Shown: in pieces, positions 2,079 through 44,225 of the stretch | Layout: the number at the start of each line of letters is the position of its first letter | Numbering within the stretch: position 1 is the first letter of the stretch | DNA from: an uncultured Gammaproteobacteria bacterium | GTDB taxonomy: Bacteria > Pseudomonadota > Gammaproteobacteria > GCA-002705445 > GCA-002716945 | Assembly (NCBI GenBank): GCA_905479195.1 | Contig: CAJQLO010000001.1 | Location: forward strand, 368,694 to 432,693 | Direction: 5' to 3' | DNA length: 64,000 bases | Translations under genes and position numbers: made by a program | Notes under the pieces: model-generated | The model's database searches: none | What the model saw: the letters and a program-made list of their open reading frames with translations, nothing else | Told to the model about the DNA's origin: nothing

Positions 2079-2104
2079 GTTAACTAGAAGATAATAAAAA
2101 GAAT

Positions 2105-2136: not shown

Positions 2137-2169
2137 TAAACTAAGCGAAACAAATAGGAGCGCGCAATT

Positions 2170-3540: not shown

Positions 3541-3604
3541 ATTGTTGTCATAGTTATTAGACACCCTCATTGGTGGTAAATAACGTAAAATGGCTGTAAA
3601 CACT

Positions 3605-3638
3605 AGGTCGCTTACTTTGCTAAGCGGCCTTTTTTTTT
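3605..3638 (+). terminator. rho-independent terminator after mtoX
   Basis: Stem AGGTCGCTTA, loop CTTTGC, stem TAAGCGGCCT, then a run of nine T (followed by an A-run, so possibly bidirectional). Confidence 0.7.
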
Positions 3639-3692
3639 GGTAAAAAAAACTCTAAAAATTTACAATTAGTTGATTTGTGGTATGATTTTGAT

Positions 3693-7005: not shown

Positions 7006-7898
7006 TTCATGACTTTCCTTAAATGGAAATGATATTGCCCTAATTTACCACCATAATTTCCTGCAGATATGGCAACTATATCTTTTTTTATTTTCATTTT
7101 AGAAATACTTTGTATCGAAGTTTTTATTGCCTCATTGATATCATCAAATGTCAGTCCATTGATAACTATTTCCATCACACAATTTACATTAGCTGGTAGA
7201 GTACTCTTTGTAATACTCTTTAGTGTTGGACAAAAAGCGTCATTAGTAGATGCTATTAAAGCCTTGTATTTTGAACCAACTTTTGATCCAGACCTCACAA
7301 CCCCGCCAGGAAAAGGAGTTATAATATTTGGCTGATTTTTGATTGAATTTATTGCTGTCTCACAGGCAGACAAGCATGATTTTCTATTAGTACTCAATAC
7401 TAAAAAATTACCACCACCTATTGCTGGTACACGTGCAGTTGATTCTTCACAAAGAAATTCTCCATCCATGACTGGTATACGCCAAAATCTTCTGTCTTGT
7501 ATTTTTTTTGATATTTGATGGCCATCACCAAAGTATCTTAAGTTTTTACCTAAAGGAATTACATCTTCTCCGATCATCCCAGAAAATATAGCGGTTGTTG
7601 GGCAAGTGAGAATACACTGACCAACCCTGACCTCTAATTGCTTTTCTAGCTGACTTCTAGACATTGAAAATAGTAAGATTGAATAGCCTGGCCTGTTATC
7701 AGGTGTTTCTGACGATTTTAATTGTTTTTCGATGCCAGCTTCTATGCCGCATGCAATAACTGATGTAGCAAATCCAGTAAAAGAGTCACAGGCATGTTTT
7801 GCCCATTTTAAATTATCTGCTGTTACGATTATACGACTGGCTTTCATATTAAAAGCTTCGGCAAACGTATTATCTATTTTTATACCATTATAAATCAT
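7002..7898 (-). CDS. fhcD: formylmethanofuran:tetrahydromethanopterin formyltransferase (Ftr/FhcD)
   Basis: N-terminus MIYNGIKIDNTFAEAFNMKASRIIVTA matches the Ftr N-terminus (xINGVEIEDTFAEAFxMxGTRVLITA). Length 298 aa. Embedded in the fhc operon. Confidence 0.85.
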   Translation of the reverse strand: MIYNGIKIDNTFAEAFNMKASRIIVTADNLKWAKHACDSFTGFATSVIACGIEAGIEKQLKSSETPDNRPGYSILLFSMSRSQLEKQLEVRVGQCILTCPTTAIFSGMIGEDVIPLGKNLRYFGDGHQISKKIQDRRFWRIPVMDGEFLCEESTARVPAIGGGNFLVLSTNRKSCLSACETAINSIKNQPNIITPFPGGVVRSGSKVGSKYKALIASTNDAFCPTLKSITKSTLPANVNCVMEIVINGLTFDDINEAIKTSIQSISKMKIKKDIVAISAGNYGGKLGQYHFHLRKVMK

Positions 7899-19860: not shown

Positions 19861-21214
19861 ACAACATAAAATTAGTTATGACTATTATGGTGATACTCGC
19901 GATATATTTGCAGTAATCAAAGATTCTGAGTGGTCAGTATTTTTATGTAGTAATCATGATAAGTTTCAAGATGAGAGATATGACATACTTAGTGCTAATC
20001 CAGTAGAAAAAATAATTTCTTATATAGATAAGACTACAGTAGAAAATAAAAATGGTATCCAGGAATATAAAGATGACCCAATAGATGTGGTAGGTATTGT
20101 CATGAAAAAGTACCCCTCCGATATTAGTGACTTGCCATTTACTGGTGGAGCGATTGGTTATTTATCATATGATTTAGGTAATCATTATGAAGGTATTGAA
20201 ATTAAAAAAAATGATCTTAATGTACCACTTATGGCATTTGGTATTTATGACTGGGCAGTTATTGTTGACCATCATAAGAAAAATACAACTTTAGTTTATA
20301 GAAATGAAGATTCCTTTATTGAAAATATAAAATTATGCCTTGAAAAAAAAATATTTGATAAGAATCAAGAAAAAAAATTCTTAATTAATTCAGCTTGTGA
20401 ATCGAACATTACCCATGATGAATATGAAAGTAAATTTAATAAAATACAATCATATATCCAGAGTGGAGATTGCTATCAAATTAACTTTTCACAAAGATTT
20501 TCTGCTCAGTATAGTGGGGACACTTGGGATATTTACAATAAGATAACACCTGCTTACTCATCACCTTACTCGGCATATATAAATATGCCTTTTATTAATA
20601 TAATGAGTTTTTCTCCAGAACGATTTCTCTCCTATGATGGAAATATTGTAGAGACCAAACCAATAAAAGGAACTCGTCCTGTTTCTGCTGATATACAGGT
20701 TAATAAACAGCTTATAGAGGAATTATCTACTTCATATAAGGAGAGAGCAGAAAACTTAATGATTGTCGATTTACTGAGAAATGATTTGGGAAAAAATTGT
20801 GAATTTGGTTCGGTAAAAGTTAAGGAGTTATTTAGTATCGAGACATTTGCAAACGTCCATCATCTTGTCAGTACTATTCAGGGTAAGATTGCCAGTAATA
20901 GTAATATTTACAAGCTTATTAAGGACTGTTTCCCTGGAGGTTCTATTACAGGTGCGCCAAAAATTAGGGCTATGCAGATTATAAGCGAGCTTGAGCCCGA
21001 CAATAGAAATATTTATTGTGGCTCTATAGGCTATATTAGCTTTAGCGGAACAACTGACTTAAATATTGCTATTAGAACTGTAATTGCCATGAAGGATAAA
21101 TTATATTTTTGGGGAGGAGGCGGGATAGTCTATGACTCTGAAATTGAATCAGAGTATAAGGAAACATTTGATAAAATCAAACCTCTATTAGATTTACTTA
21201 AAACTCCAACTTAA
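19853..21214 (+). CDS. pabB: chorismate-utilising enzyme, aminodeoxychorismate synthase component I-like (PabB-like; supplies the aminobenzoate moiety of H4MPT)
   Basis: 453 aa. The C-terminal chorismate-binding domain is conserved (SPERFL, G(T)RP, MIVDLLRNDLG, ETFANVHHLVSTIQG, FPGGSITGAPKIRAMQII.ELE). A pabB homologue is a known member of methylotroph H4MPT clusters. Confidence 0.75.
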   Translation: MNKQHKISYDYYGDTRDIFAVIKDSEWSVFLCSNHDKFQDERYDILSANPVEKIISYIDKTTVENKNGIQEYKDDPIDVVGIVMKKYPSDISDLPFTGGAIGYLSYDLGNHYEGIEIKKNDLNVPLMAFGIYDWAVIVDHHKKNTTLVYRNEDSFIENIKLCLEKKIFDKNQEKKFLINSACESNITHDEYESKFNKIQSYIQSGDCYQINFSQRFSAQYSGDTWDIYNKITPAYSSPYSAYINMPFINIMSFSPERFLSYDGNIVETKPIKGTRPVSADIQVNKQLIEELSTSYKERAENLMIVDLLRNDLGKNCEFGSVKVKELFSIETFANVHHLVSTIQGKIASNSNIYKLIKDCFPGGSITGAPKIRAMQIISELEPDNRNIYCGSIGYISFSGTTDLNIAIRTVIAMKDKLYFWGGGGIVYDSEIESEYKETFDKIKPLLDLLKTPT

Positions 21215-21881
21215 TTTTTTTTGAAACTTCTTTTGCTAGATTTATATTAAATTTATACCGTGCTTTCGATGAATCACATAATTGCCCTCTAAATCCTAAA
21301 AAATCAGGATTTAACTCTTTTAGCATTTGTATATGATCAAGTTTTAAAGATCCAGACAAGCCACAAATCATCCCATAAGATTTTACTATCTTTAAAAAAT
21401 CTTTTATCTCTTTCTGGCTCAATAGGTCTATTATTGATTTACTATTTTTATGACATGTATCAATCATTATGCCTTGATAACCCATACCGATAAGTTTTTC
21501 TACATTATTAAGATCGAAGTCTTGGTCAGCAAATATTACACAGATAGGTTTAGTATTTTTGAAATTAATTTGTTCAAGAATAATCCGATGTTCTGATAAA
21601 TATTTTTTATCAAACATTCCTATCTTTAAATAATTTATTTCTTTTTCTATAAGAATCTTTAAATTTTTTATATTACTATTATTATTTGGATTAATATCAT
21701 TACCCATAGTTACACTAAGAATATTATTGGGTAATAAAATTTTTACTTTAGAGATCAATTCAATGCCTACAAAACCTAATGCACCATCATTAATATTTTT
21801 TAAATCTAAAATATCAATATCAACTTTTGAAGCAATAGTTGCCTCATCAATATCTTTTACACTAGCAAGAAATCCTACCAT
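21198..21881 (-). CDS. mfnB: MfnB-like (5-formylfuran-3-yl)methyl phosphate synthase family TIM-barrel protein (furan moiety of methylofuran/methanofuran)
   Basis: N-terminus MVGFLASVKDIDEATIASKVDIDILDLKNINDGALGF matches the MJ1099/MfnB N-terminal pattern (LLVSPxDxEEAxEAxxGGADIIDVKNPKEGSLGA). 227 aa. Confidence 0.6.
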   Translation of the reverse strand: MVGFLASVKDIDEATIASKVDIDILDLKNINDGALGFVGIELISKVKILLPNNILSVTMGNDINPNNNSNIKNLKILIEKEINYLKIGMFDKKYLSEHRIILEQINFKNTKPICVIFADQDFDLNNVEKLIGMGYQGIMIDTCHKNSKSIIDLLSQKEIKDFLKIVKSYGMICGLSGSLKLDHIQMLKELNPDFLGFRGQLCDSSKARYKFNINLAKEVSKKIKLEF

Positions 21882-21882
21882 G

Positions 21883-22452
21883 TTATTTCATATTCTCTTT
21901 TTGGAATTCTTGGATCTTATCTTCTATCCATTTCCATGCTTGAGACTCTCTTGGCCCCGCGGTCTTTTTAATTCCTATCTTAAGATATTCTATTTCTTGT
22001 AAAATTTTTTCTATAGGTAGCATTCTCAGCCTGCTAACCAATACTGATGCCTCTATTACTGAAAACTGTGCCCTATTAAAACCCATAAATGGTTTATGAA
22101 TTACTTTTTTACTTATATCACATACTATATTAGGTCTTTTCTCATCATCTTTAAATTCTTTGGCTATTACATTATAATGAGTATTAGCTAATGTCAGCCT
22201 TGGGACCACACTCTTATCTTTAATATCTTCTAGCTCCCAATCTTTTTTATATTTTGTAACAATTCCTGCAAACACTCTTACATCATCAATAAAGTTTATG
22301 GTCGCTAGATTATTTTTAGTAATATTCTCTAATGTTTGAGATGGCCGAAAAGGTGAAATAATAACTCTATCGTCGATGAGTTGTATTCCCATAGGCGCTA
22401 TATGAACTATATTTTTTTCAGAGACGGTTGTGACTATAACTTCATGTATCAT
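21883..22452 (-). CDS. DUF447-like protein (possible MfnF-like methylofuran biosynthesis enzyme)
   Basis: 189 aa. The family is assigned from memory of DUF447/MJ0840-like proteins clustering with mfnB, and is weakly supported. Confidence 0.35.
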   Translation of the reverse strand: MIHEVIVTTVSEKNIVHIAPMGIQLIDDRVIISPFRPSQTLENITKNNLATINFIDDVRVFAGIVTKYKKDWELEDIKDKSVVPRLTLANTHYNVIAKEFKDDEKRPNIVCDISKKVIHKPFMGFNRAQFSVIEASVLVSRLRMLPIEKILQEIEYLKIGIKKTAGPRESQAWKWIEDKIQEFQKENMK

Positions 22453-23840
22453 TTTTTCTTTTTAAAAGTTGGACCTTGTTCTTTAAATTCAAGCTTATCA
22501 TCAATCTTTTCATCTACTAAGCAACCCCATTTCAATTCTTCATCTTGTTCATAAGTTTTTCCTAGTTGGTGTGCAATTTGAGCTCTAGCTAATTCCACCC
22601 CTAAATAAAAAGCATGACCAGTATCATCTCCAACGTCTATCTTTTCAAAGAAATCAAAAGGATCGATAGCAACTTGCAACCCTTTTTTATTAAACAAATT
22701 AACACCATCATCTGTATTCATTATTCTATAGCTAGAATCTTTAACTTGTTCAAACAATTCTTCAACTTCTTGCGCATTATATCTTATAGGATCTTCTTCA
22801 TGAGTTGTAAGTAGTCCTGAATTAATATGTTTTGGCGTGGTGTTTCCAAGACTTGCTGCTAGAATAATCCTTCGTGCTAAATCACTTTCTTTAATTACTG
22901 TTCTGCAATGTTTGCTAACTTCAGTAGTTAAAATATGATTAATTTTAAGTTCAGATATTATCCCCATCAGTATCATAGTCATTCCAGTTGTATCTGCATG
23001 AGTAAGCTCTGTTACATTACCAGTACCCATCATAATATGGATATCTGGATACCTTTTTCTTAATTCACTATACCTGGTAATTGATTGAGTAAAACCATAG
23101 TTTATTGGATCTAAAATAGGGTCTGCAATAAATATTCTTTTATTTTCAATACATCTATCAATGCAATCATATAGACTGACCATATCTCCATCCTTAGGTA
23201 TTAGGATAGGGTATGAATCTACTTCATCTAGGATATAAAAATTATCTGATTTTATACTCAAAAGATAGTCTGCTCCGGATTTTCCCCCAAGAATTAATTC
23301 TTTATCTAAATGAGAATCTATGCTGACATAAAAATCTTGACGTTTTAGCTCTTGTATAGTTTCAGATAAATGAGGAAATGGTTTATTAGGTAAACAGCCA
23401 ATATCAATTATATCTGCACCATTATCTCTATAATAATTAGCCATGCTGATAATTTCTTGTATTTTCATATTAGGAGCATCAGTTATTTCAGCAAATATAT
23501 GTACCTCGTACTTTGAGAGATCATATTTTAAAGGATTACCTCCAAACATAACTGGCAAGTCTTTTAATTCTTCTGGTCCGCGCTCAATTTTAATCTTAAG
23601 TTTTTTAGCCAACTCATCTATATCGCCTCTAACCTTCCCAGGCAATATAATCTTGCTGAAGTTATCCACATTTCCAATACGCCTATATATCATTTCTGTA
23701 GTAAGCAATGCAGCAACATTAATATTAAGATTCCTTATTTCATATGAAAAATCTTTCTCTTCTATGCAGTCTAAAATCTTCTTTAGATTTTTCTCAGCTA
23801 ATTTTCCCGTAATAAATAAAATATTCTTTTTCATACCCAT
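22449..23840 (-). CDS. dihydropteroate-synthase-like pterin-binding enzyme with C-terminal extension (MJ0107-like; H4MPT biosynthesis)
   Basis: 463 aa. The central region has a DHPS-like barrel pattern (DIIDIGC..., GTGNVTELTHADTTG). The size and extra C-terminal domain resemble the archaeal H4MPT-specific DHPS homologue. Confidence 0.6.
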   Translation of the reverse strand: MGMKKNILFITGKLAEKNLKKILDCIEEKDFSYEIRNLNINVAALLTTEMIYRRIGNVDNFSKIILPGKVRGDIDELAKKLKIKIERGPEELKDLPVMFGGNPLKYDLSKYEVHIFAEITDAPNMKIQEIISMANYYRDNGADIIDIGCLPNKPFPHLSETIQELKRQDFYVSIDSHLDKELILGGKSGADYLLSIKSDNFYILDEVDSYPILIPKDGDMVSLYDCIDRCIENKRIFIADPILDPINYGFTQSITRYSELRKRYPDIHIMMGTGNVTELTHADTTGMTMILMGIISELKINHILTTEVSKHCRTVIKESDLARRIILAASLGNTTPKHINSGLLTTHEEDPIRYNAQEVEELFEQVKDSSYRIMNTDDGVNLFNKKGLQVAIDPFDFFEKIDVGDDTGHAFYLGVELARAQIAHQLGKTYEQDEELKWGCLVDEKIDDKLEFKEQGPTFKKKK

Positions 23841-24361
23841 TTTTTTAGAGCTCGATTTAATTTCATAACATTGTCCACAACATCAACATTCTTAAATTTT
23901 TTTAATTTTTCATAATTTTCTAACTCTATATCACGTGGGTATAATGTCACAGACTTTTTTGGTGCTTGTGTTATTACCGTAGGCTCAGTATCACAGGCAA
24001 AGACTATTGAGTGTATTTTGCATTTACCAGCTTGTGCAAACATATTTGTCACCAAAGTATCTGATAATCCATAAGACATTTGTGCAATAGTATTAGATGT
24101 TGCAGGAGAAACTACAATTAGCTTATATACATTCTCATATAGTAAACTAACAGGAGCAGAGCTAGCTGTAATATCTTTAAAAACCTTAATTCCTTTTGAT
24201 TTAAAATCTTCAAGACTATAATTATACCATTTAAGAACTTCCTCGCCTGCTCCACTAAGAAATAAGTCTACATTTTTTAGAGTAAATATAATCTCTATTG
24301 ATTCTTTTAGATAATGACCAGAACCAGTAATACACCACGCTATTCTTTTTGTATTATCCAT
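23831..24361 (-). CDS. dmrA: AfpA/DmrA-like flavoprotein (dihydromethanopterin reductase candidate)
   Basis: 176 aa. The N-terminal IAWCITGSGH flavoprotein motif resembles the CoaC/AfpA family. Known partner in H4MPT clusters. Confidence 0.5.
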   Translation of the reverse strand: MDNTKRIAWCITGSGHYLKESIEIIFTLKNVDLFLSGAGEEVLKWYNYSLEDFKSKGIKVFKDITASSAPVSLLYENVYKLIVVSPATSNTIAQMSYGLSDTLVTNMFAQAGKCKIHSIVFACDTEPTVITQAPKKSVTLYPRDIELENYEKLKKFKNVDVVDNVMKLNRALKKWV

Positions 24362-24362
24362 A

Positions 24363-24965
24363 TTATTTTATGCTTTTATTTATTAGTGTTTTATATTCTA
24401 TCAAGTCTTCTTGGCTGTTTATATTAATAAATATATTTTTCTCATCTGAGAAATCTACTAATTCTAGGCTACATTGATTATACCATTTATCAATTTTTCT
24501 CTGACCAGTATCTATAAATGATTTTAAGTTATTCAATAGATCTTTTTTTATTAAGGAATATACGGGCTGTATCCTATCTCCATTATGAGCAGCTCTAACA
24601 TCAAAATGATTATTAATGTTAGTCATGCGCTCAAAGTATGTGTGACTAAGTAATGGACCATCACATGGTAGAGTTATTAGATATTTTGTTTTAGTATTAA
24701 ATAATGATGTATATATGCCTGACAAGGGTCCTTGATAATCCTTTAATATATCCTGCCAAGTTATTAGCCCCATTTTATTATATATATCAATATTTCTATT
24801 AGCATTAACATAAATTTCATTAGAGTATTCTTTGCAGATATCATACAAATGTTTGATAACATATTTTTTGTTTATCCGCATTAAACCTTTATCCTGGCCA
24901 TCCATTCTCTCGGATTTCCCGCCTGCTAATATTACTATTGTTATATCTTCTTTATTTATATTCAT
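24363..24965 (-). CDS. mobA: molybdenum cofactor guanylyltransferase
   Basis: N-terminal VILAGGKSERMDGQDKGL matches the MobA LAGGxSxRMG motif. 200 aa. First gene of a minus-strand operon. Confidence 0.75.
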   Translation of the reverse strand: MNINKEDITIVILAGGKSERMDGQDKGLMRINKKYVIKHLYDICKEYSNEIYVNANRNIDIYNKMGLITWQDILKDYQGPLSGIYTSLFNTKTKYLITLPCDGPLLSHTYFERMTNINNHFDVRAAHNGDRIQPVYSLIKKDLLNNLKSFIDTGQRKIDKWYNQCSLELVDFSDEKNIFININSQEDLIEYKTLINKSIK

Positions 24966-26826: not shown

Positions 26827-27164
26827 CGAGAGTCAACTATATGATCGCTGTGTAAGCAGAGGAAAGTCCGGGCTCCATAGGCAATAGTGCCAGGTAACGC
26901 CTGGGAAACGTGAGTTTACGGAAAGTGCTACAGAAAATAACCGCTAATATTTTATATTAGTAAGGGTGAAAAGGTGAGGTAAGAGCTCACCACATACGAG
27001 GTAACAAGTATGGTTGAGGCAAACCCCACTAGGAGCAAAGCAAATTTATAGCATTTTGTCAGCCTAAGACACGCTATATGGTAAGCTGCTAGAGGTTTTT
27101 GGCGACAAAAATCCCAGATTAATGATCATACATGACAGAACCCGGCTTATCGGTTGGCTCTTAG
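26827..27164 (+). ncRNA. rnpB: RNase P RNA (bacterial type A, M1 RNA)
   Basis: Contains the universal P4 sequences GAGGAAAGTCCGGGCTCCATAGG and ACAGAACCCGGCTTATCGG, plus the GGTAACGCCTGGG, GTAAGGGTGAAA.GGTG.GGTAAGAGC.CACC and GGCAAACCCCAC..GGAGCAA blocks in the canonical order. The 5' end GAGAGTCAAC pairs with the 3' GTTGGCTCT as P1. Confidence 0.9.
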
Positions 27165-27350
27165 ACTACTTTTTAATTATAAAATCACCATATCAAGATA
27201 AGCTCTTGTTAAATATAAGTATTTGATTAATATAGACTATTTTTAGTATATTCTATGTATTTATGAAGCTAAAGCCTTGCATACATCAATAAAAAGTCAT
27301 ATAGTGTTGATATATGGTAATTTATGTAAGATTGTGGGGAATAATGGTAA

Positions 27351-27803
27351 ATGTTTAAAGGTATCCATAACATAAACTTGGATGGAAAAGGCAGATTAAC
27401 TATACCAACCAAGTATAGAAATACTATTAGTGATCAGTCGAATGGCAATATGGTTGTTACGATTGATTCAGAAGAAAAATGCTTACTCCTTTATCCGGCA
27501 AATATTTTCTCTAATATTGAAACTAAAATCAATGACTTGCCAAGCTTTACTAAAAATACTAGAAGAATACAACGCTTACTAATAGGTCATGCAGAGGATT
27601 TAGAGTTAGATTCAAGCGGAAGAATATTATTACCTAAGCCTCTTAGACTCGTTGCTGAGATGTCTAAAAAAGTCACTTTAATAGGACAAGGTCAAAAATT
27701 TGAAATTTGGAGCGATGATATTTGGAATAATAAAGTCAATAAATGGAGATCTGAAGAAACAGATGAATCAGAGGAATCTGTTTTATCAGATATTAGAATT
27801 TAA
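27351..27803 (+). CDS. mraZ: transcriptional regulator MraZ
   Basis: MFKGIHNINLDGKGRLTIPTKYR... canonical MraZ with duplicated DUF-type halves. 150 aa. First gene of the dcw cluster. Confidence 0.9.
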   Translation: MFKGIHNINLDGKGRLTIPTKYRNTISDQSNGNMVVTIDSEEKCLLLYPANIFSNIETKINDLPSFTKNTRRIQRLLIGHAEDLELDSSGRILLPKPLRLVAEMSKKVTLIGQGQKFEIWSDDIWNNKVNKWRSEETDESEESVLSDIRI

Positions 27804-28000
27804 TGAAATTAGATAGATATTATAGAACATTGGGTGTAACTGGAAATGAAGACGTTAGAGTCATCAAACAGGCATTTATGAGAGTTGCTCAAAAATATCA
27901 TCCTGATAAGAACCCTGATGATATTAAGTCAACTGAGAAATTCATAGATGCAAGAAATGCATATGAACATATTATGAAATATAAAAAAGGTATTCAATAA
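27803..28000 (+). CDS. stand-alone J-domain protein (65 aa) inserted in the dcw cluster
   Basis: RYYRTLGVTGNEDVRVIKQAFMRVAQKYHPDKNPDD...ARNAYEHI is a canonical DnaJ J-domain with the HPD motif. Start overlaps the mraZ stop and the stop overlaps the rsmH start (TAATG both sides). Confidence 0.65.
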   Translation: MKLDRYYRTLGVTGNEDVRVIKQAFMRVAQKYHPDKNPDDIKSTEKFIDARNAYEHIMKYKKGIQ

Positions 28001-28944
28001 TGATTGCTCCGAAACATATACCCGTAATGCTTAATCAGTCTATTAATGCTATGAAGATTGTGCCTAATGGTACTTATGTTGATGCGACATTTGGATTTGG
28101 CGGGCATTCAAGAAAGATTTTAGATGCTTTAGATTCCGATGGTCGACTCTATGCAATCGATAAAGATACATATGCGATTAATATGATTAGAGAAGATATT
28201 ATTAGCGACAAAAGATTCACCCTTAAACATGGATGTTTTTCAGAATTAGAAAATTTTTCTAAAGAATGGGGTATACATGGTTCAATAAATGGAATTCTAT
28301 TTGATTTAGGAGTTTCCTCACATCATCTTGATGAAGCAGGTAGAGGATTCAGTTTTAATAAAAATGGACCTATAGATATGAGGTTTGATCAATCATCTGG
28401 TATTTCTGCTTGCGAATGGTTAGAAACCGTTGATGAACAAACGTTATCACATGTAATTTGGAAGTATGGAGATGAAAGGTACTCGAGACGTATCGCTAGA
28501 GCAATAGTATACCAGAGGGAGCAAGAAAAAATTTCAGATACTGGACAGTTAGCTAAAATAATAGATAAAGCTATGCCTAGAAATGAAAAGCATAAACATA
28601 ATGCCACAAGAACGTTTCAAGCCATAAGAATCTTCATGAATAAAGAGTTAGAGGTTTTAAAAGATGTATTGAGTAATAGTTATAATATTCTGGCTCCAAA
28701 AGGTAGATTAGTACTTTTAACATATCATTCTCTAGAAGATAGAGTAATTAAAAATTTTCTTGCTGTAACGGATGAAAATATTTCTACTCCAAGAAACTTA
28801 CCTATAAAAAATGAATTTTTAAAAAAAATGTTCAATATTATTGCTAAGTCAATTAAACCTGATAAGGATGAGATTGATTTAAATCCAAGATCTAGATCTG
28901 CGAAATTAAATATACTGGAAAAAGCTAATGAGGATTATGTTTAA
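28000..28944 (+). CDS. rsmH: 16S rRNA (cytosine1402-N4)-methyltransferase
   Basis: HIPVMLNQSI...YVDATFGFGGHS...LGVSSHHLD motifs of MraW/RsmH. 314 aa. Confidence 0.9.
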   Translation: MIAPKHIPVMLNQSINAMKIVPNGTYVDATFGFGGHSRKILDALDSDGRLYAIDKDTYAINMIREDIISDKRFTLKHGCFSELENFSKEWGIHGSINGILFDLGVSSHHLDEAGRGFSFNKNGPIDMRFDQSSGISACEWLETVDEQTLSHVIWKYGDERYSRRIARAIVYQREQEKISDTGQLAKIIDKAMPRNEKHKHNATRTFQAIRIFMNKELEVLKDVLSNSYNILAPKGRLVLLTYHSLEDRVIKNFLAVTDENISTPRNLPIKNEFLKKMFNIIAKSIKPDKDEIDLNPRSRSAKLNILEKANEDYV

Positions 28945-29197
28945 TTTATTTATATTATTTATTATTACAATATCAGCTTTTACTGTTGTTCATTTAAAGC
29001 ATAAAAATAGAACCATGAATATTAGTATTGAAAATATTGAGCAAGAATTATCTTTCGAATTAAATGAGCATAAGAGGTTGCTGGATACTAAGGGAAAACT
29101 AATTAATCAGAAGTTAGGAAATACTAATATTGAGAAAAGTCTTGGAATGGAAATTCCATCAAAAAAGAAAATAATTTATTTAGATTTGGTTGAATAA
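28928..29197 (+). CDS. ftsL: cell division protein FtsL (small bitopic membrane protein)
   Basis: 89 aa with an N-terminal TM helix then a coiled-coil-like region. Position after rsmH. Confidence 0.6.
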   Translation: MRIMFNLFILFIITISAFTVVHLKHKNRTMNISIENIEQELSFELNEHKRLLDTKGKLINQKLGNTNIEKSLGMEIPSKKKIIYLDLVE

Positions 29198-29211: not shown

Positions 29212-30381
29212 ATGTTTGAGTTAGTTAATGAGTATAATCAGAATGCTGTGATAAAGGTGATTGGTGTTGGCGGCGGCGGTGGTAATGCTGTCATGTCAAT
29301 GCTTGAATCTAAGATTCATGGTGCAGAATTTATTTTAGCAAATACAGATTCTCAGGCTTTGAGAGATGTGAAGGGCGCTACAATGATACAAATTGGATCA
29401 GAGATCACTAAAGGTCTAGGAGCAGGAGCTGATCCGGAAAAAGGAAGGCAGGCAGCTTTAGAAGCAAAAGAAGAATTATCTTCTGCTATTGAAGGTGCTG
29501 ATATGTTATTTATTGCTGCAGGAATGGGTGGTGGTACCGGCACTGGAGCCGCATCAGTCATTGCTCAAATCGCAAGAGATGCAGGAATATTAACAGTAGC
29601 TGTTGTAACAAAACCATATGAGTTCGAAGGAGCTAAAAGGATGTTGCATGCTGAGCAAGGTATAGAAGCATTGGGTGAGTGGGTTGACTCATTGATTGTA
29701 ATACCTAATGAAAAGTTATCTGAAGTGTTTGGAGGTGATAATTCAATATTCTCATCTTTTGAAAATGCAAATGATGTTTTGAGAGGGGCTGTAAAAGGTA
29801 TTGCTGAAATTATAACCATAAGAGGTTTCATTAATGTTGACTTCGCTGATGTTAAAACTGTAATGTCAGGCCGAGGTAAAGCAATGATGGGTTCTGGTTG
29901 TGCGACAGGTGATAATCGTGCCGAAGAAGCTGTTCAAGCTGCACTAAATAGTCCTTTATTAGATAATATAGACTTGCATGGTGCAAGTGGTGTATTAGTT
30001 AATATTACAGCTGGAGCAAATTTAACTTCTAATGAGTTTGGTGTAATAGGCGAGCGAGTTAAAGAAATTGCAAATGAAAATGCAACCGTTATTGTAGGTT
30101 GTATAAAAGAAGAAGATAGTTTAGGAGAATTAAGAGTGACTCTGATAGCGACAGGTTTTGAAGAATTTTCTGAAAATCCAGATGCTTTAGAAGAAAATAT
30201 ATCTCATAGTCAAACAGGCATATCTTCATCTAATGGAACAATGGCGGCAATGACAACAGCCAATGTTTCATCAACAGCAACTTCTAGCTATAGTAATCCT
30301 ATAACTAGCAATACAATTACAGAAAAAGAAAAGGCAGAGAATATAGATATACCTGCTTTCTTAAGGCAACAAGCTGACTAG
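29212..30381 (+). CDS. ftsZ: cell division GTPase FtsZ
   Basis: IKVIGVGGGGGNAV..., the tubulin signature GGGTGTG, and the conserved C-terminal peptide DIPAFLRQQAD. RBS GGAGG. Confidence 0.95.
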   Translation: MFELVNEYNQNAVIKVIGVGGGGGNAVMSMLESKIHGAEFILANTDSQALRDVKGATMIQIGSEITKGLGAGADPEKGRQAALEAKEELSSAIEGADMLFIAAGMGGGTGTGAASVIAQIARDAGILTVAVVTKPYEFEGAKRMLHAEQGIEALGEWVDSLIVIPNEKLSEVFGGDNSIFSSFENANDVLRGAVKGIAEIITIRGFINVDFADVKTVMSGRGKAMMGSGCATGDNRAEEAVQAALNSPLLDNIDLHGASGVLVNITAGANLTSNEFGVIGERVKEIANENATVIVGCIKEEDSLGELRVTLIATGFEEFSENPDALEENISHSQTGISSSNGTMAAMTTANVSSTATSSYSNPITSNTITEKEKAENIDIPAFLRQQAD

Positions 30382-30406: not shown

Positions 30407-32092
30407 ATGTGGAGACAATATTTTATATTATTTATTGTCTCCATAACTTTTCTTCTCATCATAGCAAGAATTATTTTATTACAAGCATTTGACACCGATT
30501 GTTTTTTATTTAATAAGTCTGACTGCAAAGTTAATCTCAGCCATGTAGCAGATAAACGCCAAATAGATCATAGGATAATTAAAAAATATAGAGGTATGAT
30601 CTACGATAGAAATGGTGAAATTCTTGCAATGAGTCTACCTAAAAAAACATTATGCATTAATGTTTATAGAGTTAAACAATTACTAAAAATAAAGGATGTA
30701 AAATATAGCAAGTTACTCAAAATGATTGGATTGTCTGAAAAAGATTTTTCAAAAATATTGAAGAAACACTCGAATAAGAAAGAATATTATTTAAAAAGAA
30801 AGCTAGATGATAGTCTTGCATCAAAAATAATGGATCTAGATCTACCATATATTTATTTTATACCTGAATTTTCTCGTGTTTATCTTGGAGGATCATATTT
30901 TTCTAATATAATTGGATTTACAGATATTGATGACAATGGTCAAGCAGGTATAGAGTACTCAAAAAATAAAGAATTAAGTCCTACTCCAGGAATCAAAAAA
31001 GTTAGAAAAGATAATCTTGGACGCTCAGTTGAATTAATTGAACTTATTAAAAAACCAATATCAGGAAAGAACATATATCTATCTTTAGACAAAAGGATTC
31101 AGTTTATCGGATATGATATTTTACAAAAACATGTAGAGAGTAGTAATGCTGATAGTGCATCACTTGTTTTGATAAAAAATACAACAGGTGAAATAATTTC
31201 TATGGTGAATTACCCATCATTTAATCCTAATAATAGACAAGAGATGACTGGGCATAAAATAAGAAATAAAGTAGCAACATATACATTTGAGCCAGGGTCC
31301 ACCATGAAACCATTTGCAGTATACACGGCATTAGAGACAAAAGCTGTTGATTATAATTATACTATTAACACTTCTCTAGGTTTCGAATTAAATAATAAGC
31401 CTCTCGAAGATTATAAAGACTTAGGGATTCTAGACCTAACAGGAATCATTCAAAAATCAAGTAATATTGGAGCAGCAACCCTATCAAAAAAAACAAATAG
31501 AGAGGATATATATAATACTCTGAGAGATTTAGATTTTGGTGGCAGTTTATATATTGATTGGCCTGGTGAACAAAATGGAAATCTTCATCACTACAATCAT
31601 TGGTCTGAAGATGACCATGCTTCTATTAGTTATGGGTATGGAATATCAGCAACATTATTACACTTAGCTAATGCTTATGTCACATTAGCTAATTATGGAA
31701 AAAAGATTCAATTAACATATGAAAAAGTAAGCAAGAATGAGATTTATTATGATGAAGTTCTAAGTAAAAATATTTCAAAAGATATCATTGAGATGATGAG
31801 GTCTGTCGTTGAGATAGGAGGTACAGGAAGAAAAGCTAAATTAGAAAAATATTCTGTTGCTGGTAAAACTGGCACATCAAGAATGATAGATAGTGGTAAA
31901 TATAATATAAATAAACATAATGCAATATTTGTGGGTATTGTGCCAGCCTCTAAGCCTGAGTATGTAGCTGCAATTATTGTTCGTAATCCTAGAAAAGGTA
32001 ATGCATCAGGAGGAAGACATGCCGCACCTATATTTAAAGAATTTATGAGTCATTCATTAAATTTATTAAGAGTTTATCCAGATATTAAATAG
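30407..32092 (+). CDS. ftsI: peptidoglycan D,D-transpeptidase FtsI (PBP3)
   Basis: N-terminal TM helix, PBP dimerisation domain, and transpeptidase motifs STMKP, SSN and KTGT. 561 aa. Confidence 0.9.
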   Translation: MWRQYFILFIVSITFLLIIARIILLQAFDTDCFLFNKSDCKVNLSHVADKRQIDHRIIKKYRGMIYDRNGEILAMSLPKKTLCINVYRVKQLLKIKDVKYSKLLKMIGLSEKDFSKILKKHSNKKEYYLKRKLDDSLASKIMDLDLPYIYFIPEFSRVYLGGSYFSNIIGFTDIDDNGQAGIEYSKNKELSPTPGIKKVRKDNLGRSVELIELIKKPISGKNIYLSLDKRIQFIGYDILQKHVESSNADSASLVLIKNTTGEIISMVNYPSFNPNNRQEMTGHKIRNKVATYTFEPGSTMKPFAVYTALETKAVDYNYTINTSLGFELNNKPLEDYKDLGILDLTGIIQKSSNIGAATLSKKTNREDIYNTLRDLDFGGSLYIDWPGEQNGNLHHYNHWSEDDHASISYGYGISATLLHLANAYVTLANYGKKIQLTYEKVSKNEIYYDEVLSKNISKDIIEMMRSVVEIGGTGRKAKLEKYSVAGKTGTSRMIDSGKYNINKHNAIFVGIVPASKPEYVAAIIVRNPRKGNASGGRHAAPIFKEFMSHSLNLLRVYPDIK

Positions 32093-38409: not shown

Positions 38410-39483
38410 ATGAAAATAATTGCAATTCTAGCTAGTGGCACTGGTGGACATGTATATCCTGCATATACTATTGCGCAAGAATATATCAAGCTTGGCTATA
38501 AGATTTTATGGATTGGAACTAAAAATGGTCTTGAAAATAAAGTAGTAAATAATTCATCAGTAATTATTGAACATGTAAGTTCTCAAGGGATACGAGGGAA
38601 ATCATCACTTAAAAAATTATTAGGCCTATTTAACTTTTTAAGATCCATATATGAATCATTTATGCTGCTTAAAAAATATAAGCCATCTCTGGTTATTGGA
38701 TTTGGAGGCTATGTTAGTGTTGGAGCCTCTGTAACTTCTTTTCTATTATCGATACCAATGGTAGTTCATGAGCAAAACTCAATAGCTGGTACAGCCAATA
38801 AAATTAATTATTATTTTGCTAGACGTGTCTACGAAACATTTCCTTTAAGTTTTAAAAAAAATAGTAAAAAAATAATACATACGGGTAATCCTGTTAGAAC
38901 ATCATTTGATAAAGTAAAGAAACCTGAAGAAAAATATATCGATAATAATCCTTGTATAAATATTTTAGTTATGGGAGGTAGCCAAGGTGCAGAATTTTTA
39001 AATAATACAATGCCTTTTGCTTTTTCTCATTTTCATAGTACTAATATCTCCATAAAACATATTAGCGGTCCTAATCATGCAGAGTTGGTACAAAATAAAT
39101 ATTTAAAATATTCTATAGACGCAACTGTGCTGGCATATTCTGAAAAAATCGAGGAGTTATATGATTGGGCAGATTTAGTTATATGTAGAGCTGGTTCAAC
39201 ATCTATATCTGAACTATCAAAAATAGGAATAGCGGCCTTGTTAGTTCCGTTTCCTCATGCAACAGATAACCACCAATTTTTTAATGCTAGTCATCTAGCT
39301 AAGAATTCTGCTGCTATTTTGTTAGAAGAAAGAATGGATTTTATTGAGAATTTTGTCACTATTGCTAACATTCTCTTAAATGATCAAAAGCGAATGTATA
39401 TGTTATCAAAAAATATACAAAATATATTTCCGTCAAATGCTATAAATATTATTATGGAAGATTCTTTGAAACTAATTAAATAA
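38410..39483 (+). CDS. murG: UDP-N-acetylglucosamine--N-acetylmuramyl-(pentapeptide) pyrophosphoryl-undecaprenol N-acetylglucosamine transferase
   Basis: N-terminal ILASGTGGHVYPA and GT-B fold. 357 aa. Confidence 0.9.
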   Translation: MKIIAILASGTGGHVYPAYTIAQEYIKLGYKILWIGTKNGLENKVVNNSSVIIEHVSSQGIRGKSSLKKLLGLFNFLRSIYESFMLLKKYKPSLVIGFGGYVSVGASVTSFLLSIPMVVHEQNSIAGTANKINYYFARRVYETFPLSFKKNSKKIIHTGNPVRTSFDKVKKPEEKYIDNNPCINILVMGGSQGAEFLNNTMPFAFSHFHSTNISIKHISGPNHAELVQNKYLKYSIDATVLAYSEKIEELYDWADLVICRAGSTSISELSKIGIAALLVPFPHATDNHQFFNASHLAKNSAAILLEERMDFIENFVTIANILLNDQKRMYMLSKNIQNIFPSNAINIIMEDSLKLIK

Positions 39484-39486
39484 ATC

Positions 39487-40356
39487 ATGATAATACAAAA
39501 AAATATGTCTCTAAAAAAATTTACAACAATTCGTATTGGCGGAGATTCAAATAAAATATATTTTCCAGAATCTCTAGAAGACATATCTAGCTTGAAAAAA
39601 ATATTCTTATTACCAAAAACACTGATTATTGGTAAAGGCTCAAATATTGCATTTTCAGATAAGGGGTATAAGCCTGATATTATTTCTTTAAGTAAATATC
39701 ATAATACGCATATTTCTATTATTGGTAATAAGTATATATCTGTTTCTGCCAGCATATCATGCGCGAGACTCGCAAAGTTTTGTCATAAGCAGTCTATAGC
39801 TGGTTTTGAGTTTCTTCATGGAATACCAGGAACAGTTGGTGGAGCATTAGCAATGAATGCTGGTGCGTTTAAACAATCAATATGGGATTCTGTTGATTCT
39901 GTCAATATCGTTAATAACGCAGGTGATATAAAAAATATTTCATGTAAAAAAGTTAAAACTTCTTATCGTCATGTTGATAAAAATAATATTTTATTATTTT
40001 TAGATGTTTTATTAGTTATAAATAAAAGAAAAGTATTTGATGTCAATATTCTTAGAGAGTATTCTGAGCATAGAAGCATCACTCAACCTGTAAAACAATG
40101 GTCATCAGGCTGTATCTTTAAGAATCCCTCAGAGAATACTCCAGCAAGTTCACTTATTGATTCTCTTGACATTAAAAAAAGAAAAATTGGTGGCATATAT
40201 ATATCAAAAAAACATTGTAATTATTTTATTAATGATGGAAGTGGTTCATGTAAAGACCTCATTCAACTAATCCAATATGTTTCAAAATTAATTAAAAATA
40301 AATATAATATCTCTTTAACTAGAGAGATTTGTATATACTCAAATAATAATGAATAA
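39487..40356 (+). CDS. murB: UDP-N-acetylenolpyruvoylglucosamine reductase
   Basis: Short-type MurB. LKKFTTIRIGGDS (FAD-binding), GKGSNI, GIPGTVGGALAMNAGA and the SYRHV motif. 289 aa. Occupies the slot where murC normally sits. Confidence 0.85.
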   Translation: MIIQKNMSLKKFTTIRIGGDSNKIYFPESLEDISSLKKIFLLPKTLIIGKGSNIAFSDKGYKPDIISLSKYHNTHISIIGNKYISVSASISCARLAKFCHKQSIAGFEFLHGIPGTVGGALAMNAGAFKQSIWDSVDSVNIVNNAGDIKNISCKKVKTSYRHVDKNNILLFLDVLLVINKRKVFDVNILREYSEHRSITQPVKQWSSGCIFKNPSENTPASSLIDSLDIKKRKIGGIYISKKHCNYFINDGSGSCKDLIQLIQYVSKLIKNKYNISLTREICIYSNNNE

Positions 40357-41284
40357 GTTATCCGGAAAAAATATTGGGGTATTATGTGGAGGTTGGTCTG
40401 ATGAAAGACCAGTGTCTTTAGATAGTGGTAAATCTGCTTATGAATCACTCCTAAGTAATAATTTAAACGCTTTTCTTTTTGATTTTCAATATGATGATAT
40501 TGGCCTACTTTCTAAATTTATTAAATCTAATAATATAGATCTTGTACTAAATTTAATTCATGGCTCTGGTGGCGAAGATGGTCTGGTACAAAGTTATCTA
40601 GATAGGTTATCTATTAAATATGTTGGCTCAAACTCAAAATCTTCAAAACTTTCATTCAATAAGGTTCATACCAAAGAAATTTGGCTAAGAAATAAATTGA
40701 AAACACCAAATTATCTAAAACTATCTGATAATATTTCTTCAAAAAAAATAGAGGAAATTTTTGATGAAAAATTTATTTTAAAACCATGTGAATCTGGGTC
40801 AAGCGTAGGTATAAAAATATTTAATAGCGCTAATTTTTATTCATCTAGCTATACTGATATATTAAAAAAACTTTCCCTTAATAGTGCTAATGTGCATAAT
40901 TATTTTATTGAAGAATTTATTGCTTCTCCAGAATATACTGCGCCTATTATCAATAATAAAGTTTTCCCAGTAATTAAAATAGAGACAAAGAGAGAATTTT
41001 ATAATTATGAAGCTAAGTATTTAGATAATGATACTATTTTCTCATTTCCTGAGTTTTCAAAAGATATTCATGAAAATATTAATTCAACTTGTATGAGGGC
41101 TTTTAATAGCATCGGATGTTTTAACTGGGGGCGTGTTGATTTTTTTATGGATAAAGATTTATCAATTAATTTAATTGAGATTAACTCTATACCGGGTATG
41201 ACTGATCATAGTTTAGTACCTAAGTCTGCAAAAAAGAATGGGTTTTCATACGATCAATTACTTTTATTACTTTTAGAATATTAA
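40349..41284 (+). CDS. ddl: D-alanine--D-alanine ligase
   Basis: N-terminal IGVLCGGWSDERPVSLDSGKS and ATP-grasp C-terminal domain. 311 aa. Confidence 0.85.
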   Translation: MNKLSGKNIGVLCGGWSDERPVSLDSGKSAYESLLSNNLNAFLFDFQYDDIGLLSKFIKSNNIDLVLNLIHGSGGEDGLVQSYLDRLSIKYVGSNSKSSKLSFNKVHTKEIWLRNKLKTPNYLKLSDNISSKKIEEIFDEKFILKPCESGSSVGIKIFNSANFYSSSYTDILKKLSLNSANVHNYFIEEFIASPEYTAPIINNKVFPVIKIETKREFYNYEAKYLDNDTIFSFPEFSKDIHENINSTCMRAFNSIGCFNWGRVDFFMDKDLSINLIEINSIPGMTDHSLVPKSAKKNGFSYDQLLLLLLEY

Positions 41285-41285: not shown

Positions 41286-41948
41286 ATGAAAAGAACTATT
41301 ATCATTTTTAGTTTATTTTTATTATTTATTGGCATATATAATTATCCTATTTTTTTTGGCAAAAATCCTGTAAAACATATTTTTAAAGAAGGAATATTTG
41401 AGTATAGTAATGAATCTAGAATAGATGGTATTTTAAAAGAATATATTTCTAAAGAAATTTATCAAATTGATTTACGAAGATTAAAGAATGAAATAGAAGA
41501 AGACCTCTGGATAAGAAATGCACAAATTATATTAAATCCTCCAGATGAAATTATAGTTAAGATATCTGAATTCAAGCCTTTGTTTTTATGGAATAATACA
41601 TCATATGTAGATGAAGAAGGGTTTTTTATTGAAAGTGGGAAACATCCTATTAAAAATATTCTAGAGATATCTAGCAACCAAGATGACAAGGTTTTCATGT
41701 ATGATTTGTATTTAAACCTTAAAATAATATTATCTACAATTGATATTAATATTATTAAATTATCGAAAGATCGTGAAATGATTACTATACTAACTTCAAA
41801 ATATAGATTTTTTGTGCGTCATAGTGATTATGAATCAAAGATGAAAGAGTTTTTGTCTGTATATGAGCAATTTTTATTAACTCAAAAGTCTGGAAAAATA
41901 AGAAAGAATATTGATTTAAGATACCCTACAGGTTTTGCTGTACAGTAA
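41286..41948 (+). CDS. ftsQ: cell division protein FtsQ (bitopic, POTRA-containing)
   Basis: 220 aa with an N-terminal TM helix. Position between ddl and ftsA. Confidence 0.6.
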   Translation: MKRTIIIFSLFLLFIGIYNYPIFFGKNPVKHIFKEGIFEYSNESRIDGILKEYISKEIYQIDLRRLKNEIEEDLWIRNAQIILNPPDEIIVKISEFKPLFLWNNTSYVDEEGFFIESGKHPIKNILEISSNQDDKVFMYDLYLNLKIILSTIDINIIKLSKDREMITILTSKYRFFVRHSDYESKMKEFLSVYEQFLLTQKSGKIRKNIDLRYPTGFAVQ

Positions 41949-41966: not shown

Positions 41967-43217
41967 ATGGCAAATACTACAGTTAAAGATGAATTTATCG
42001 TTGCTCTAGATATAGGAACTACTAAGGTTTTATGTTTAGTTGCTGACTATGATGAAGATGGGGAGTTAAGATTAGTAGGCATCGGTCAAGAGTCATGTAA
42101 TGGGCTAAATAAAGGTGTTATTTCTGAAATTGATGCAACCGTAAGAAGTATTCGAAAAGCAAAAGATCAGGCTAGAGCCATGACAAATTGTAAATTTACT
42201 AAAGTAATTACCGGTATTGCCGGGAATCATATTCAGAGTTATAACGGCAATGCAGCCATTAATATTCTAAATGATGAAGTCACACAAGAAGATAAAGATA
42301 AGGTTATAGCAAGTGCAAGTGATATTAGCATACCTGCTGACCAAGAAATTCTTCATAGAATACCTCAATATTTCACCATAGATGGACAAATGGGTATAAA
42401 AGAGCCAATTGGAATGGCTGGTAAAAGGTTGGAGGCAAATGTCCATGTTATTACATGCTCAACAACTGCTAAGAAGAATTTAACAAAGTGTATAGAAAAT
42501 AGTTTTTTAGAAGTCGATGAATTTGTATTACAACCGGTAGCTTCTAGTTACTCAGTTTTAACAGATGAAGAGAAATCTTTGGGTGTATGTCTTGTGGATA
42601 TTGGTGGAGGAACTACAGATATTGCTATTTTTACTGATGGCGATATAAAGCATACTGCTGTAATCCCTCTTGCTGGTCAAATGGTCACCAAGGATATTCA
42701 AATAGGATTACGTACTTCATTTGAAGCAGCTGAAGATATAAAACAGAAGTATGGTAGTTTAATTAATGAGACGAATGACACTGCGGTTAATATACCAGTG
42801 CCATCAATTTCTGATAAACCTGCATCTGAAGTTAATAAACCAATTCTTACACATATGATTACTTGTAGAGTAGATGAGATATTCCAACAAATAGAAGAGG
42901 AAATTAATTCTAGTGGGTGGGTGTCAAAAATTAGAGCTGGCATTGTCTTTACTGGCGGAGGTTGCAAACTAAATGGTCTAGATACATATGCTGAAAATAA
43001 ATTACTGATGCCAACGAGAATAGGTAGTCCAAAAGAAATAACTGGAATACAAAACTTGAGCGGCAAGACAAGGTATGCAACAGCTGTCGGGCTATTATTA
43101 TATAAAGATGAAAAGCTTAATGAAATGCCTCATAGGCAAAAATCTGAAAATCCATTCCTAAGATATCTTGAAGTAGTTTGGAAAAAATTCTCAGTGTATT
43201 TTCAACGAGAACTTTAA
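41967..43217 (+). CDS. ftsA: cell division protein FtsA (actin-like ATPase)
   Basis: FIVALDIGTTKV (phosphate-1), VDIGGGTTDIAIF (phosphate-2). 416 aa. Confidence 0.9.
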   Translation: MANTTVKDEFIVALDIGTTKVLCLVADYDEDGELRLVGIGQESCNGLNKGVISEIDATVRSIRKAKDQARAMTNCKFTKVITGIAGNHIQSYNGNAAINILNDEVTQEDKDKVIASASDISIPADQEILHRIPQYFTIDGQMGIKEPIGMAGKRLEANVHVITCSTTAKKNLTKCIENSFLEVDEFVLQPVASSYSVLTDEEKSLGVCLVDIGGGTTDIAIFTDGDIKHTAVIPLAGQMVTKDIQIGLRTSFEAAEDIKQKYGSLINETNDTAVNIPVPSISDKPASEVNKPILTHMITCRVDEIFQQIEEEINSSGWVSKIRAGIVFTGGGCKLNGLDTYAENKLLMPTRIGSPKEITGIQNLSGKTRYATAVGLLLYKDEKLNEMPHRQKSENPFLRYLEVVWKKFSVYFQREL

Positions 43218-43307: not shown

Positions 43308-44225
43308 ATGCTTAAACAAAGAACATTATCCAGTAAAATTAAGGCTTCAGGAGTCGGGCTTCATACTGGGAAAAAAATAACCCTAGCTTTAAAACCAGCG
43401 CAAGTGAATACAGGGATTACCTTTATAAGAACAGATCTTAAGTCTGACCCAATTAAGGCGTCTCTAGAGAATGTACATGATACTAGACTCTCTACAACTC
43501 TCTCAAACAAAACTGCTAAAATATCAACCGTTGAACATCTACTTTCTGCTTTGGCAGGCCTAGGGATAGATAATGCTCTAATAGAACTTGATGGCCCAGA
43601 AGTCCCAATAATGGATGGTAGCGCAAGACCATTTGTATTCATGATTCAATCTGCTGGTATTCAAGAGCAAGATGATGCCAAGAAGTTTATTAAGATCAAG
43701 AAAACAATTGAAGTGAGACAAGATGAAAAATGGGCAAAAATTGAACCTTTTGATGGATTCAAAGTAGCCTTTACAATTGATTTTAATCATCCAGCATTCA
43801 ATGAAAGCTCGCAGTCGTCTGAAATAGATTTTTCTTCTGTATCATACTTAAGTCAAGTAAGTCGTGCCAGAACATTTGGTTTTGCCAAAGATATTGAGTT
43901 GTTACGTAAAAATAATCTAGCACTAGGTGGAAGTGTTAATAACGCAATAGTAATTGATGACTATAAGGTTATAAACGAAGAAGGAGTTCGTTTTCAAGAT
44001 GAATTCGTTAAACATAAAATATTAGATGCTATTGGTGATTTATATTTATTAGGACATGGATTAATTGGCTCTTTTTCTGCTTATAAGTCTGGACACCATT
44101 TGAATAACCTCCTATTAAGAGAATTAGTTAATAACGCAGATGCCTGGGAAGAGGCAACCATTGAAGATAATGAAAGGTCTCCAATATTTTATAGTACGCC
44201 TGAACCTCATATTATTCAGTCATAA
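43308..44225 (+). CDS. lpxC: UDP-3-O-acyl-N-acetylglucosamine deacetylase
   Basis: MLKQRTL...SGVGLHTG.K....KPA, TTLS...I.TVEHL, and the conserved C-terminal region. 305 aa. After ftsA as in the canonical dcw end. Confidence 0.95.

Follow-up and report, generated by a model that had tools for sequence, protein, structure and literature searches.

A 65-residue J-domain protein encoded between mraZ and rsmH in a marine bacterial clade: a candidate minimal Hsp70 co-chaperone of the dcw operon

The cluster of division and cell wall (dcw) genes of an uncultured gammaproteobacterium was analysed within a 64,000-nt stretch of DNA (contig CAJQLO010000001.1, positions 368,694 to 432,693), called the window in the following, in whose numbering all its coordinates are given. 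Between mraZ and rsmH, at 27803..28000 of the forward strand, the window carries a gene of 65 codons (ATG..TAA), whose product, here named mini-J, consists of helices I-III of a J-domain with the HPD motif, without helix IV. The profile E-value, the conservation and the purifying selection described below place it far beyond chance, and mini-J is a genuine gene; that it is real and also provides a functional J-domain is judged to be very probable. With modest confidence, sequence comparison leads us to favour the reading that mini-J is translated as a class C, J-domain-only co-chaperone of Hsp70, fixed in its position between mraZ and rsmH.

The protein sequence, taken from the open reading frame (ORF) list and the sequence of the window, is MKLDRYYRTLGVTGNEDVRVIKQAFMRVAQKYHPDKNPDDIKSTEKFIDARNAYEHIMKYKKGIQ. 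It matches the Pfam family DnaJ (PF00226) with 53.8 bits, compared to a gathering score of 27.8 (E=2.1e-14); a preliminary description of this DNA, made from the letters without database searches, had read the ORF as a stand-alone J-domain with an intact HPD motif and had named a DnaJ profile search as one check, and the search bears the reading out. The PF00226 alignment covers positions 2-56 of the 63 of the profile and ends before helix IV, while the HPD motif (H33-P34-D35) falls between helices II and III, in the loop that joins them. It is the profile match that settles the nature of the ORF, its open length alone being unusual: a simple calculation puts the probability of 65 codons without a stop at about 0.5% for a guanine-plus-cytosine (GC) content of about 31%, where stops are frequent. 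With 65 aa, the protein is too short for a G/F region, a zinc finger, a C-terminal domain or a transmembrane segment, and has none of them, as had been supposed for the client-binding and zinc-finger regions. [quoted passage not shown]

Relatives of mini-J were collected by several searches. The exact protein was found on 23 read contigs of up to 609 kb, always in an identical context. A word-index search returned 34 clusters of relatives, nearly all of 62-66 aa, with identities of 58-97%. A profile search of 1.84 billion representatives produced about six short clusters (formed at 50% identity) above the generic J-domain background, and a second search, seeded with those short clusters, added about 80 further clusters, mostly of 60-66 aa. 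Database proteins and ORFs of the fetched loci were pooled into a family set of 202 distinct sequences of 60-67 aa, 199 of which measure 62-66 aa; identity within the family goes down to about 40%.

Five residues (I21, H33, D35, K36 and Y54) are invariant in the 202 sequences, K22, P34, F47 and I57 are conserved in at least 99% of them, and L10, G11, D17, A29 and A53 in at least 97%. The HPD motif is intact in 201, its H and D being invariant. A family-specific conservation is found for the N15-E16-D17 loop between helices I and II, located off the contact elements formed by helix II, HPD and helix III, as well as for K/R61. The proteins are strongly basic, with a net charge mostly between +3 and +7 and a tail rich in K and R. 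Selection was evaluated as the ratio of nonsynonymous to synonymous substitution rates (dN/dS). For unsaturated pairs the ratio ranges from 0.066 to 0.13 for mini-J, to be compared with 0.03-0.09 for mraZ and 0.06-0.10 for rsmH in the same genomes; taken more broadly, the mini-J ratio is about 0.07-0.2, like that of its neighbours, and it is about 0.1 with synonymous sites saturated.

A few sequences met in these searches deserve a separate mention. The cluster representative P0004 shows HHD in place of HPD. In P0028 and P0034, from contigs of about 520-540 bp, a canonical-looking J-domain N-terminus is fused to the exact C-terminal half of mini-J, the fusion point being KYHPDKNP/KHHPDKNP; both are probably assembly chimeras, joined at a shared nucleotide stretch. 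P0035 (99 aa) was rejected as a relative, being a split dnaJ beside grpE in an unrelated genome. A phage origin of mini-J was likewise rejected, as no close phage relative was found: the scan of viral contigs gave no match, and tblastn against 50,697 phage records retrieved generic J-domains alone, at no more than 50% identity.

The ability of mini-J to adopt the J-domain fold was analyzed on AlphaFold2 models. The model of the window protein, with a predicted local distance difference test (pLDDT) score of 89.4, contains helices at about residues 3-10, 18-32 and 41-62 and nothing more, helix I being packed on the antiparallel hairpin of helices II and III; a 45%-identical relative (pLDDT 87.2) is likewise predicted to form three helices. 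The top Foldseek match of the mini-J model is 5nro_B, a DnaK-bound J-domain, with a root-mean-square deviation of 1.1 A over 50 columns. J-domains also make up practically all the other matches listed. Helix IV, the QKRAA region, is missing family-wide, the proteins ending 7-8 residues past position 57. This helix has been described as mobile, and it was proposed that a co-chaperone can function without it, its role being perhaps to tune the specificity for Hsp70 (PMC1906734); mini-J may therefore be regarded as a truncated domain that still belongs to the family.

The family profile aligns without gaps, and with identical numbering, to the J-domain of E. coli DnaJ (residues 1-70; 1XBL, 1BQZ, 5NRO). 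Residues R19, R27, K31, Y32, H33, P34, D35, N37, F47, A53, Y54 and E55 are identical in the two proteins, and at positions 22, 36 and 51 the basic character is conserved; mini-J differs in ending at residue 65, with helix III reaching to about 62, and in the replacement of K26 by M and of K48 by I. The basic residues which position DnaJ on DnaK are reported to be R22, K26, R27, K48 and K51 (PMC8215388). Among the corresponding positions of the mini-J family, 22 is K in 200 of the 202 sequences, 27 is R or K in all 202, and 51 is K or R in 183, while 26 and 48, taken up below, depart from this pattern.

The distribution of the gene was established by scanning metagenomes with an RsmH alignment, which yielded 80 loci, annotated locally. 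Mini-J lies between mraZ and rsmH in 60 of them. In 16 others, where the upstream DNA is covered, there is no mini-J and no ftsZ after ftsL, and RsmH is at most 47% identical to the query; in the remaining 4 the relevant region is not covered. The two sets are separated by a gap in RsmH score, with at least 337 bits in the clade carrying mini-J (the J clade) and at most 277 bits outside. In the 16 outgroup loci rsmH is abutted by mraZ in 15 cases and by pntB in one. The latter (L090, a 508-kb contig of about 30% GC) contains no mraZ: in its region 2083-4436, pntA/pntB abut rsmH, followed by ftsL-ftsI-murE. A scan of genome contigs with RsmH identified six metagenome-assembled genomes, all with mini-J, and in a MraZ profile search the best 120 of 7,753 matches were dominated by the J clade.

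Absence of the ORF from all relatives, together with a lack of expression evidence, had been named beforehand as the sign of a fortuitous ORF. As to the relatives, the opposite was found, since the ORF occurs at the same position in every clade relative examined. The gene is also missing from E. coli K-12 and from the 16 outgroup loci, which agrees with the earlier statement that it is not a standard component of the dcw cluster. Within the J clade the identity of RsmH falls to 48-52% and that of mini-J to about 40%, so that the mraZ-J-rsmH arrangement must be old. Members of the clade have a GC content of about 29-36%. Among the loci examined, mini-J is confined to this one marine clade, of about 31% GC and with methylotrophy genes, among them those for formylmethanofuran dehydrogenase A, methanethiol oxidase and tetrahydromethanopterin biosynthesis; judging from these genes, the GC content and the marine sources, the clade likely consists of OM43-type Methylophilaceae.

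The J-bearing loci share a common order: genes of the tetrahydromethanopterin (H4MPT) pathway, dus, a methyltransferase gene, [rnpB], mraZ, J, rsmH, ftsL, ftsZ, ftsI and murE. In all 52 J-bearing loci reaching far enough, ftsZ directly follows ftsL, and ftsI is never found without ftsZ before it. The canonical order, as in E. coli K-12, is mraZ-rsmH-ftsL-ftsI...ftsA-ftsZ-lpxC. In the window, ftsA (41967-43217) is followed by lpxC (43308-44225), with no ftsZ between them; the direct succession of the two genes indicates that ftsZ was moved and not duplicated.

At both ends mini-J shares one base with its neighbour. The mraZ stop TAA (27801-27803) and the mini-J ATG (27803-27805) form a TAATG with a 1-nt overlap, and the same motif is formed by the mini-J stop TAA (27998-28000) and the rsmH ATG (28000-28002), base 28000 being common to the two. 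These overlaps, already pointed out in the preliminary description, are present in the sequence as stated, and their geometry is conserved: in 51 of 52 loci, mraZ and J have 1 or 4 nt in common, and in 55 of 56 the overlap of J with rsmH amounts to 1, 4 or 8 nt. No terminator-like site was found between mraZ and rsmH. By strand, lack of an intervening terminator, conserved position and overlapping junctions, mini-J qualifies as a gene of the dcw operon. Pairing of the anti-Shine-Dalgarno sequence with the 18 nt 5' of the mini-J start is predicted at +0.2 kcal/mol in the window, with a median of -2.45 across loci. For ftsZ, unlike its neighbour genes, a GGAGGT is conserved, and the corresponding duplex reaches about -10.6 kcal/mol in 49 loci. 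Overlaps with both neighbours, together with an almost absent Shine-Dalgarno sequence, fit translational coupling of mini-J, and termination-reinitiation would be the simplest reading of its junctions.

A mechanism in keeping with these features can be proposed. Ribosomes ending mraZ would re-initiate on mini-J, producing it from the dcw mRNA at a low, fixed ratio to MraZ, and translation of rsmH would in turn be coupled to that of mini-J. The protein would dock on ATP-bound DnaK by means of three elements: helix II with its basic face (K22, R/K27), the loop carrying HPD, and helix III (F47, K/R51). Docking would trigger ATP hydrolysis, and DnaK would clamp a polypeptide in its substrate site. 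That mini-J acts through DnaK is considered probable. As it has no client-binding domain, any specificity would have to come from the face away from DnaK, made up of helix I, of the family-specific loop G-N-E-D (14-17) and of the tail at the C-terminus, which is short and basic. A product of the same message, namely MraZ, RsmH (with the 30S subunit) or the relocated FtsZ, would be the partner calling for the fewest assumptions. The fixed position and the conserved residues off the DnaK face favour a specific partner; its being encoded in the 5' region of the dcw cluster is put forward tentatively, as somewhat less probable than the contrary.

The best mechanistic model for a partner-specific role may be AtcJ of Shewanella oneidensis, by analogy. 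AtcJ is a short J-domain protein of the cold-adaptation operon atcJABC, which recruits DnaK to a partner encoded in the same operon; its 21-aa C-terminal extension binds AtcC, and deletion of this extension abolishes function (PMC6715715). Mini-J resembles it as a short J-domain protein in an operon with the proteins possibly served, a few nt from the next gene, and differs in its neighbours, which are dcw genes and not atcABC.

Several observations weigh against a DnaK-dependent role with a dedicated partner. Position 26 is K or R in about 60% of the mini-J family and M in about 40%, as well as in the window protein, and K26 is reportedly essential in E. coli DnaJ. Position 48, a lysine and a DnaK contact in DnaJ, is always hydrophobic. 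Mini-J has neither the helix IV nor the extension found in AtcJ, which is made of four helices plus the extension. A dnaK gene is absent from the 64-kb window. Finally, the co-occurrence of mini-J with the relocated ftsZ, which we regard as suggestive, corresponds to one phylogenetic event and not to 52, and says little on function.

Within these limits, recruitment of DnaK to a division factor, as suggested in the preliminary description, is plausible; MraZ, RsmH or the 30S subunit, and FtsZ are equally open as partners, and so is an untargeted or competitive role. In its most specific form, mini-J would be a dedicated division co-chaperone: the 5' end of the dcw message would yield it in stoichiometric amounts, and it would recruit DnaK to a dcw-encoded protein (most interestingly FtsZ or MraZ), a proposal that we consider speculative and rather unlikely. 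If it were true, mini-J could control FtsZ assembly or turnover, or, acting on the MraZ oligomer, allow a chaperone-driven release of the operon from repression; an abundant lineage of marine methylotrophs would have an Hsp70-dependent division checkpoint, and a single evolutionary rewiring would comprise both the insertion of J and the transfer of ftsZ into the 5' part of the operon.

Alternatively, mini-J might be an untargeted modulator of DnaK, an explanation of low probability. A free J-domain would trap nearby polypeptides on DnaK indiscriminately, or compete with DnaJ/CbpA for its single J-site, thereby tuning chaperone availability, and possibly heat-shock regulation, along with dcw expression and thus with growth or division rate. 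Isolated J-domains are said to stimulate Hsp70 only in the presence of a substrate, or to behave as dominant-negative. The weak, coupled translation of mini-J would suit a low-dose regulator, and its reduction to helices I-III, to which neither a further domain nor an extension is added, favours an untargeted role; moreover, J-domain-only proteins number 100,483 of about 280,000 J-domain proteins, their roles being mostly unknown (PMC10410713). A modulator of this kind, however, leaves the fixed, doubly overlapping position unexplained across lineages with RsmH only 48-52% identical, and the invariant or conserved residues off the DnaK face (D17, N15-E16-D17, K/R61) suggest a second interface. 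In another reading, mini-J, together with RsmH, whose gene is coupled to it on the downstream side, would bring DnaK to late 30S particles, the substrate of RsmH, rather than to the divisome. In E. coli, ribosomes are assembled with the help of DnaK and DnaJ, and eukaryotes have J-proteins that bind to the ribosome, zuotin being an example. A link with ribosome maturation would be in line with the overlap of the mini-J stop with the rsmH start in 55 of 56 loci, and with a net charge and a K/R-rich tail as expected for a protein binding RNA or ribosomes; the mraZ overlap is, however, equally conserved, and a basic helix II is general to J-domains, being needed for DnaK binding, so that we regard this link as unlikely.

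The remaining explanations do without Hsp70. The cyanobacterial ZipN and the plastid ARC6 provide a precedent for a J-like adaptor: the N-terminal DnaJ-type domain of ZipN is required for interaction with FtsZ, and ARC6 is classed among J-like proteins that act independently of Hsp70 (PMC6391411). The relocated ftsZ, three genes downstream of mini-J, and the loss of helix IV could be read in this sense, whereas the conservation of HPD in 201 of 202 sequences and of basic residues at 22, 27 and 51 is the pattern predicted by Hsp70 activation; J-like domains typically lose this pattern, which makes an Hsp70-independent adaptor very improbable. The short length, the lack of helix IV and the lack of a Shine-Dalgarno sequence could still point to a fortuitous ORF, or to the decaying remnant of a longer J-protein, kept as a spacer coupling rsmH to mraZ. 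Outgroups join mraZ directly to rsmH with no spacer, and the dN/dS of about 0.1, the constant length, the invariant motif residues at about 40% identity and the Pfam E-value of 2e-14 all speak against it; on dN/dS and conservation, a fortuitous ORF or remnant is excluded for practical purposes.

In public annotation mini-J is labelled as "DnaJ domain-containing protein" or "molecular chaperone DnaJ". The models of class A DnaJ are not reached (TIGR02349, 46.1 bits versus 377; PRK10767, 52.9 versus 338), the match being limited to model positions 2-61. Among NCBIfam models, mini-J shows sub-threshold similarity to the J-domain part of DnaJ, CbpA, DjlA, TopJ and NF050028. Scores of 24.9-39.7 bits versus a cutoff of 162 were obtained for DjlA (NF006948, J-domain part only), and of 25.6-37.3 bits versus 150 for NF050028 ("cold adaptation protein ActJ"), which we take to be the AtcJ family. 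No curated NCBIfam model specific to the mini-J family was found.

[quoted passage not shown] E. coli DjlA and Rki of phage RB43 are likewise specialised J-domain proteins working with DnaK (PMC8215388; PMC3486835), but DjlA, of about 270 aa, carries a transmembrane segment at its N-terminus and the J-domain at its C-terminus, and mini-J is without such a segment. ZipN/Ftn2 of cyanobacteria and ARC6 of plastids, which have a J-type domain in common with mini-J, are the sole well-known division proteins of this kind; compared by description, they are membrane proteins of about 800 residues encoded outside the dcw operon, whereas mini-J is a soluble protein of 65 aa with HPD. No relevant paper on a J-domain together with mraZ was found, a listing of mini-J in a catalogue of bacterial J-domain proteins remaining possible, and none was found joining OM43 and Methylophilaceae with ftsZ.

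What appears to be new is thus a helix-IV-less family of 62-66 aa, apparently coupled between mraZ and rsmH in a lineage where ftsZ has moved as well, within the known category of J-domain-only class C proteins. Few gene arrangements of bacteria are as conserved as the dcw cluster, and what its first two genes, mraZ and rsmH, do is not well understood. Between these two, a module of the Hsp70-activating type is fixed in this lineage, and was kept under strong selection during the streamlining of the genome to about 31% GC. The family also sets a practical lower size limit for a J-domain under selection, at three helices and 62-66 residues, which helps to define what Hsp70 activation needs. Should a specific partner exist, mini-J would show, in a natural and minimal form, how specificity is gained by a bare J-domain, and would offer a handle on a link of chaperones with division or with the ribosome; if it is an untargeted modulator, it would be a modest addition to the large and poorly understood J-domain-only class.

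The genes surrounding mini-J were assigned by domain matches and position. Upstream, mraZ (27351..27803, +) encodes 150 aa (PF02381, 116.6 bits) and shares the last base of its stop with the mini-J start. Downstream, rsmH/mraW (28000..28944, +) encodes 314 aa (PF01795, 342.4 bits) of the 16S rRNA m4C1402 methyltransferase family. The following ftsL (28928..29197, +; 89 aa) scores 22 bits with PF04999, slightly below the cutoff, and its position is kept in all loci. Its listed start, ATG 28928, overlaps the end of rsmH by 17 nt (28928-28944); the true start may be the in-frame ATG at 28937, preceded by GAGGA. Between ftsL and ftsI lies ftsZ (29212..30381, +), with Tubulin and FtsZ_C domains and a GGAGGT Shine-Dalgarno sequence; ftsI (30407..32092, +), encoding penicillin-binding protein 3 (PBP3), has PBP_dimer and Transpeptidase domains. 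The order 3' of ftsI is murE, murF, mraY, murD, ftsW, murG, murB, ddl, an ORF at the ftsQ position, and ftsA.

On the 5' side, a sigma-70-like promoter (27277..27305, +), composed of TTGCAT, a 17-nt spacer and TATAGT, is near-invariant in seven divergent loci; lying between the RNase P RNA gene and mraZ, it is presumably the promoter of the operon. It is followed by a candidate MraZ operator (27313..27347, +), in which a TGG/TGT box recurs every 10 nt, four times in all; its end lies 3 nt ahead of the mraZ ATG. The TGG columns at 10-nt spacing are conserved across loci with MraZ only about 58% identical, and known MraZ sites are likewise built of four boxes, repeated every 10 nt (PMC12957436); the stretch thus looks like an operator overlapping the 5' untranslated region, to which MraZ would bind. 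The RNase P RNA gene (rnpB; 26829-27165, +), full-length and of the bacterial type (RF00010, 294.8 bits), adjoins the mraZ promoter. A rnpB-like stretch occurs at the same relative position in outgroup locus L096, as judged solely by a similar spurious ORF translation (2574-2708).

Further along, murC is missing from the cluster: murG (38410-39483) is followed by murB (39487-40356) and ddl (40349-41284), the E. coli counterpart of this stretch being murG-murC-ddlB, with murB elsewhere. The ORF at the ftsQ position (41286-41948, +; 220 aa) has no Pfam match at E<=1e-5, and could represent an FtsQ that has diverged strongly. The region 576-25999, upstream of the dcw cluster, is rich in genes of one-carbon and sulfur metabolism; it includes genes for a methanethiol oxidase, MtoX (2170-3540), a MauG-like di-haem enzyme (3675-5675) and, on the reverse strand, subunit A of formylmethanofuran dehydrogenase (7895-9553) and a block for H4MPT/methanofuran biosynthesis (21198-24965).

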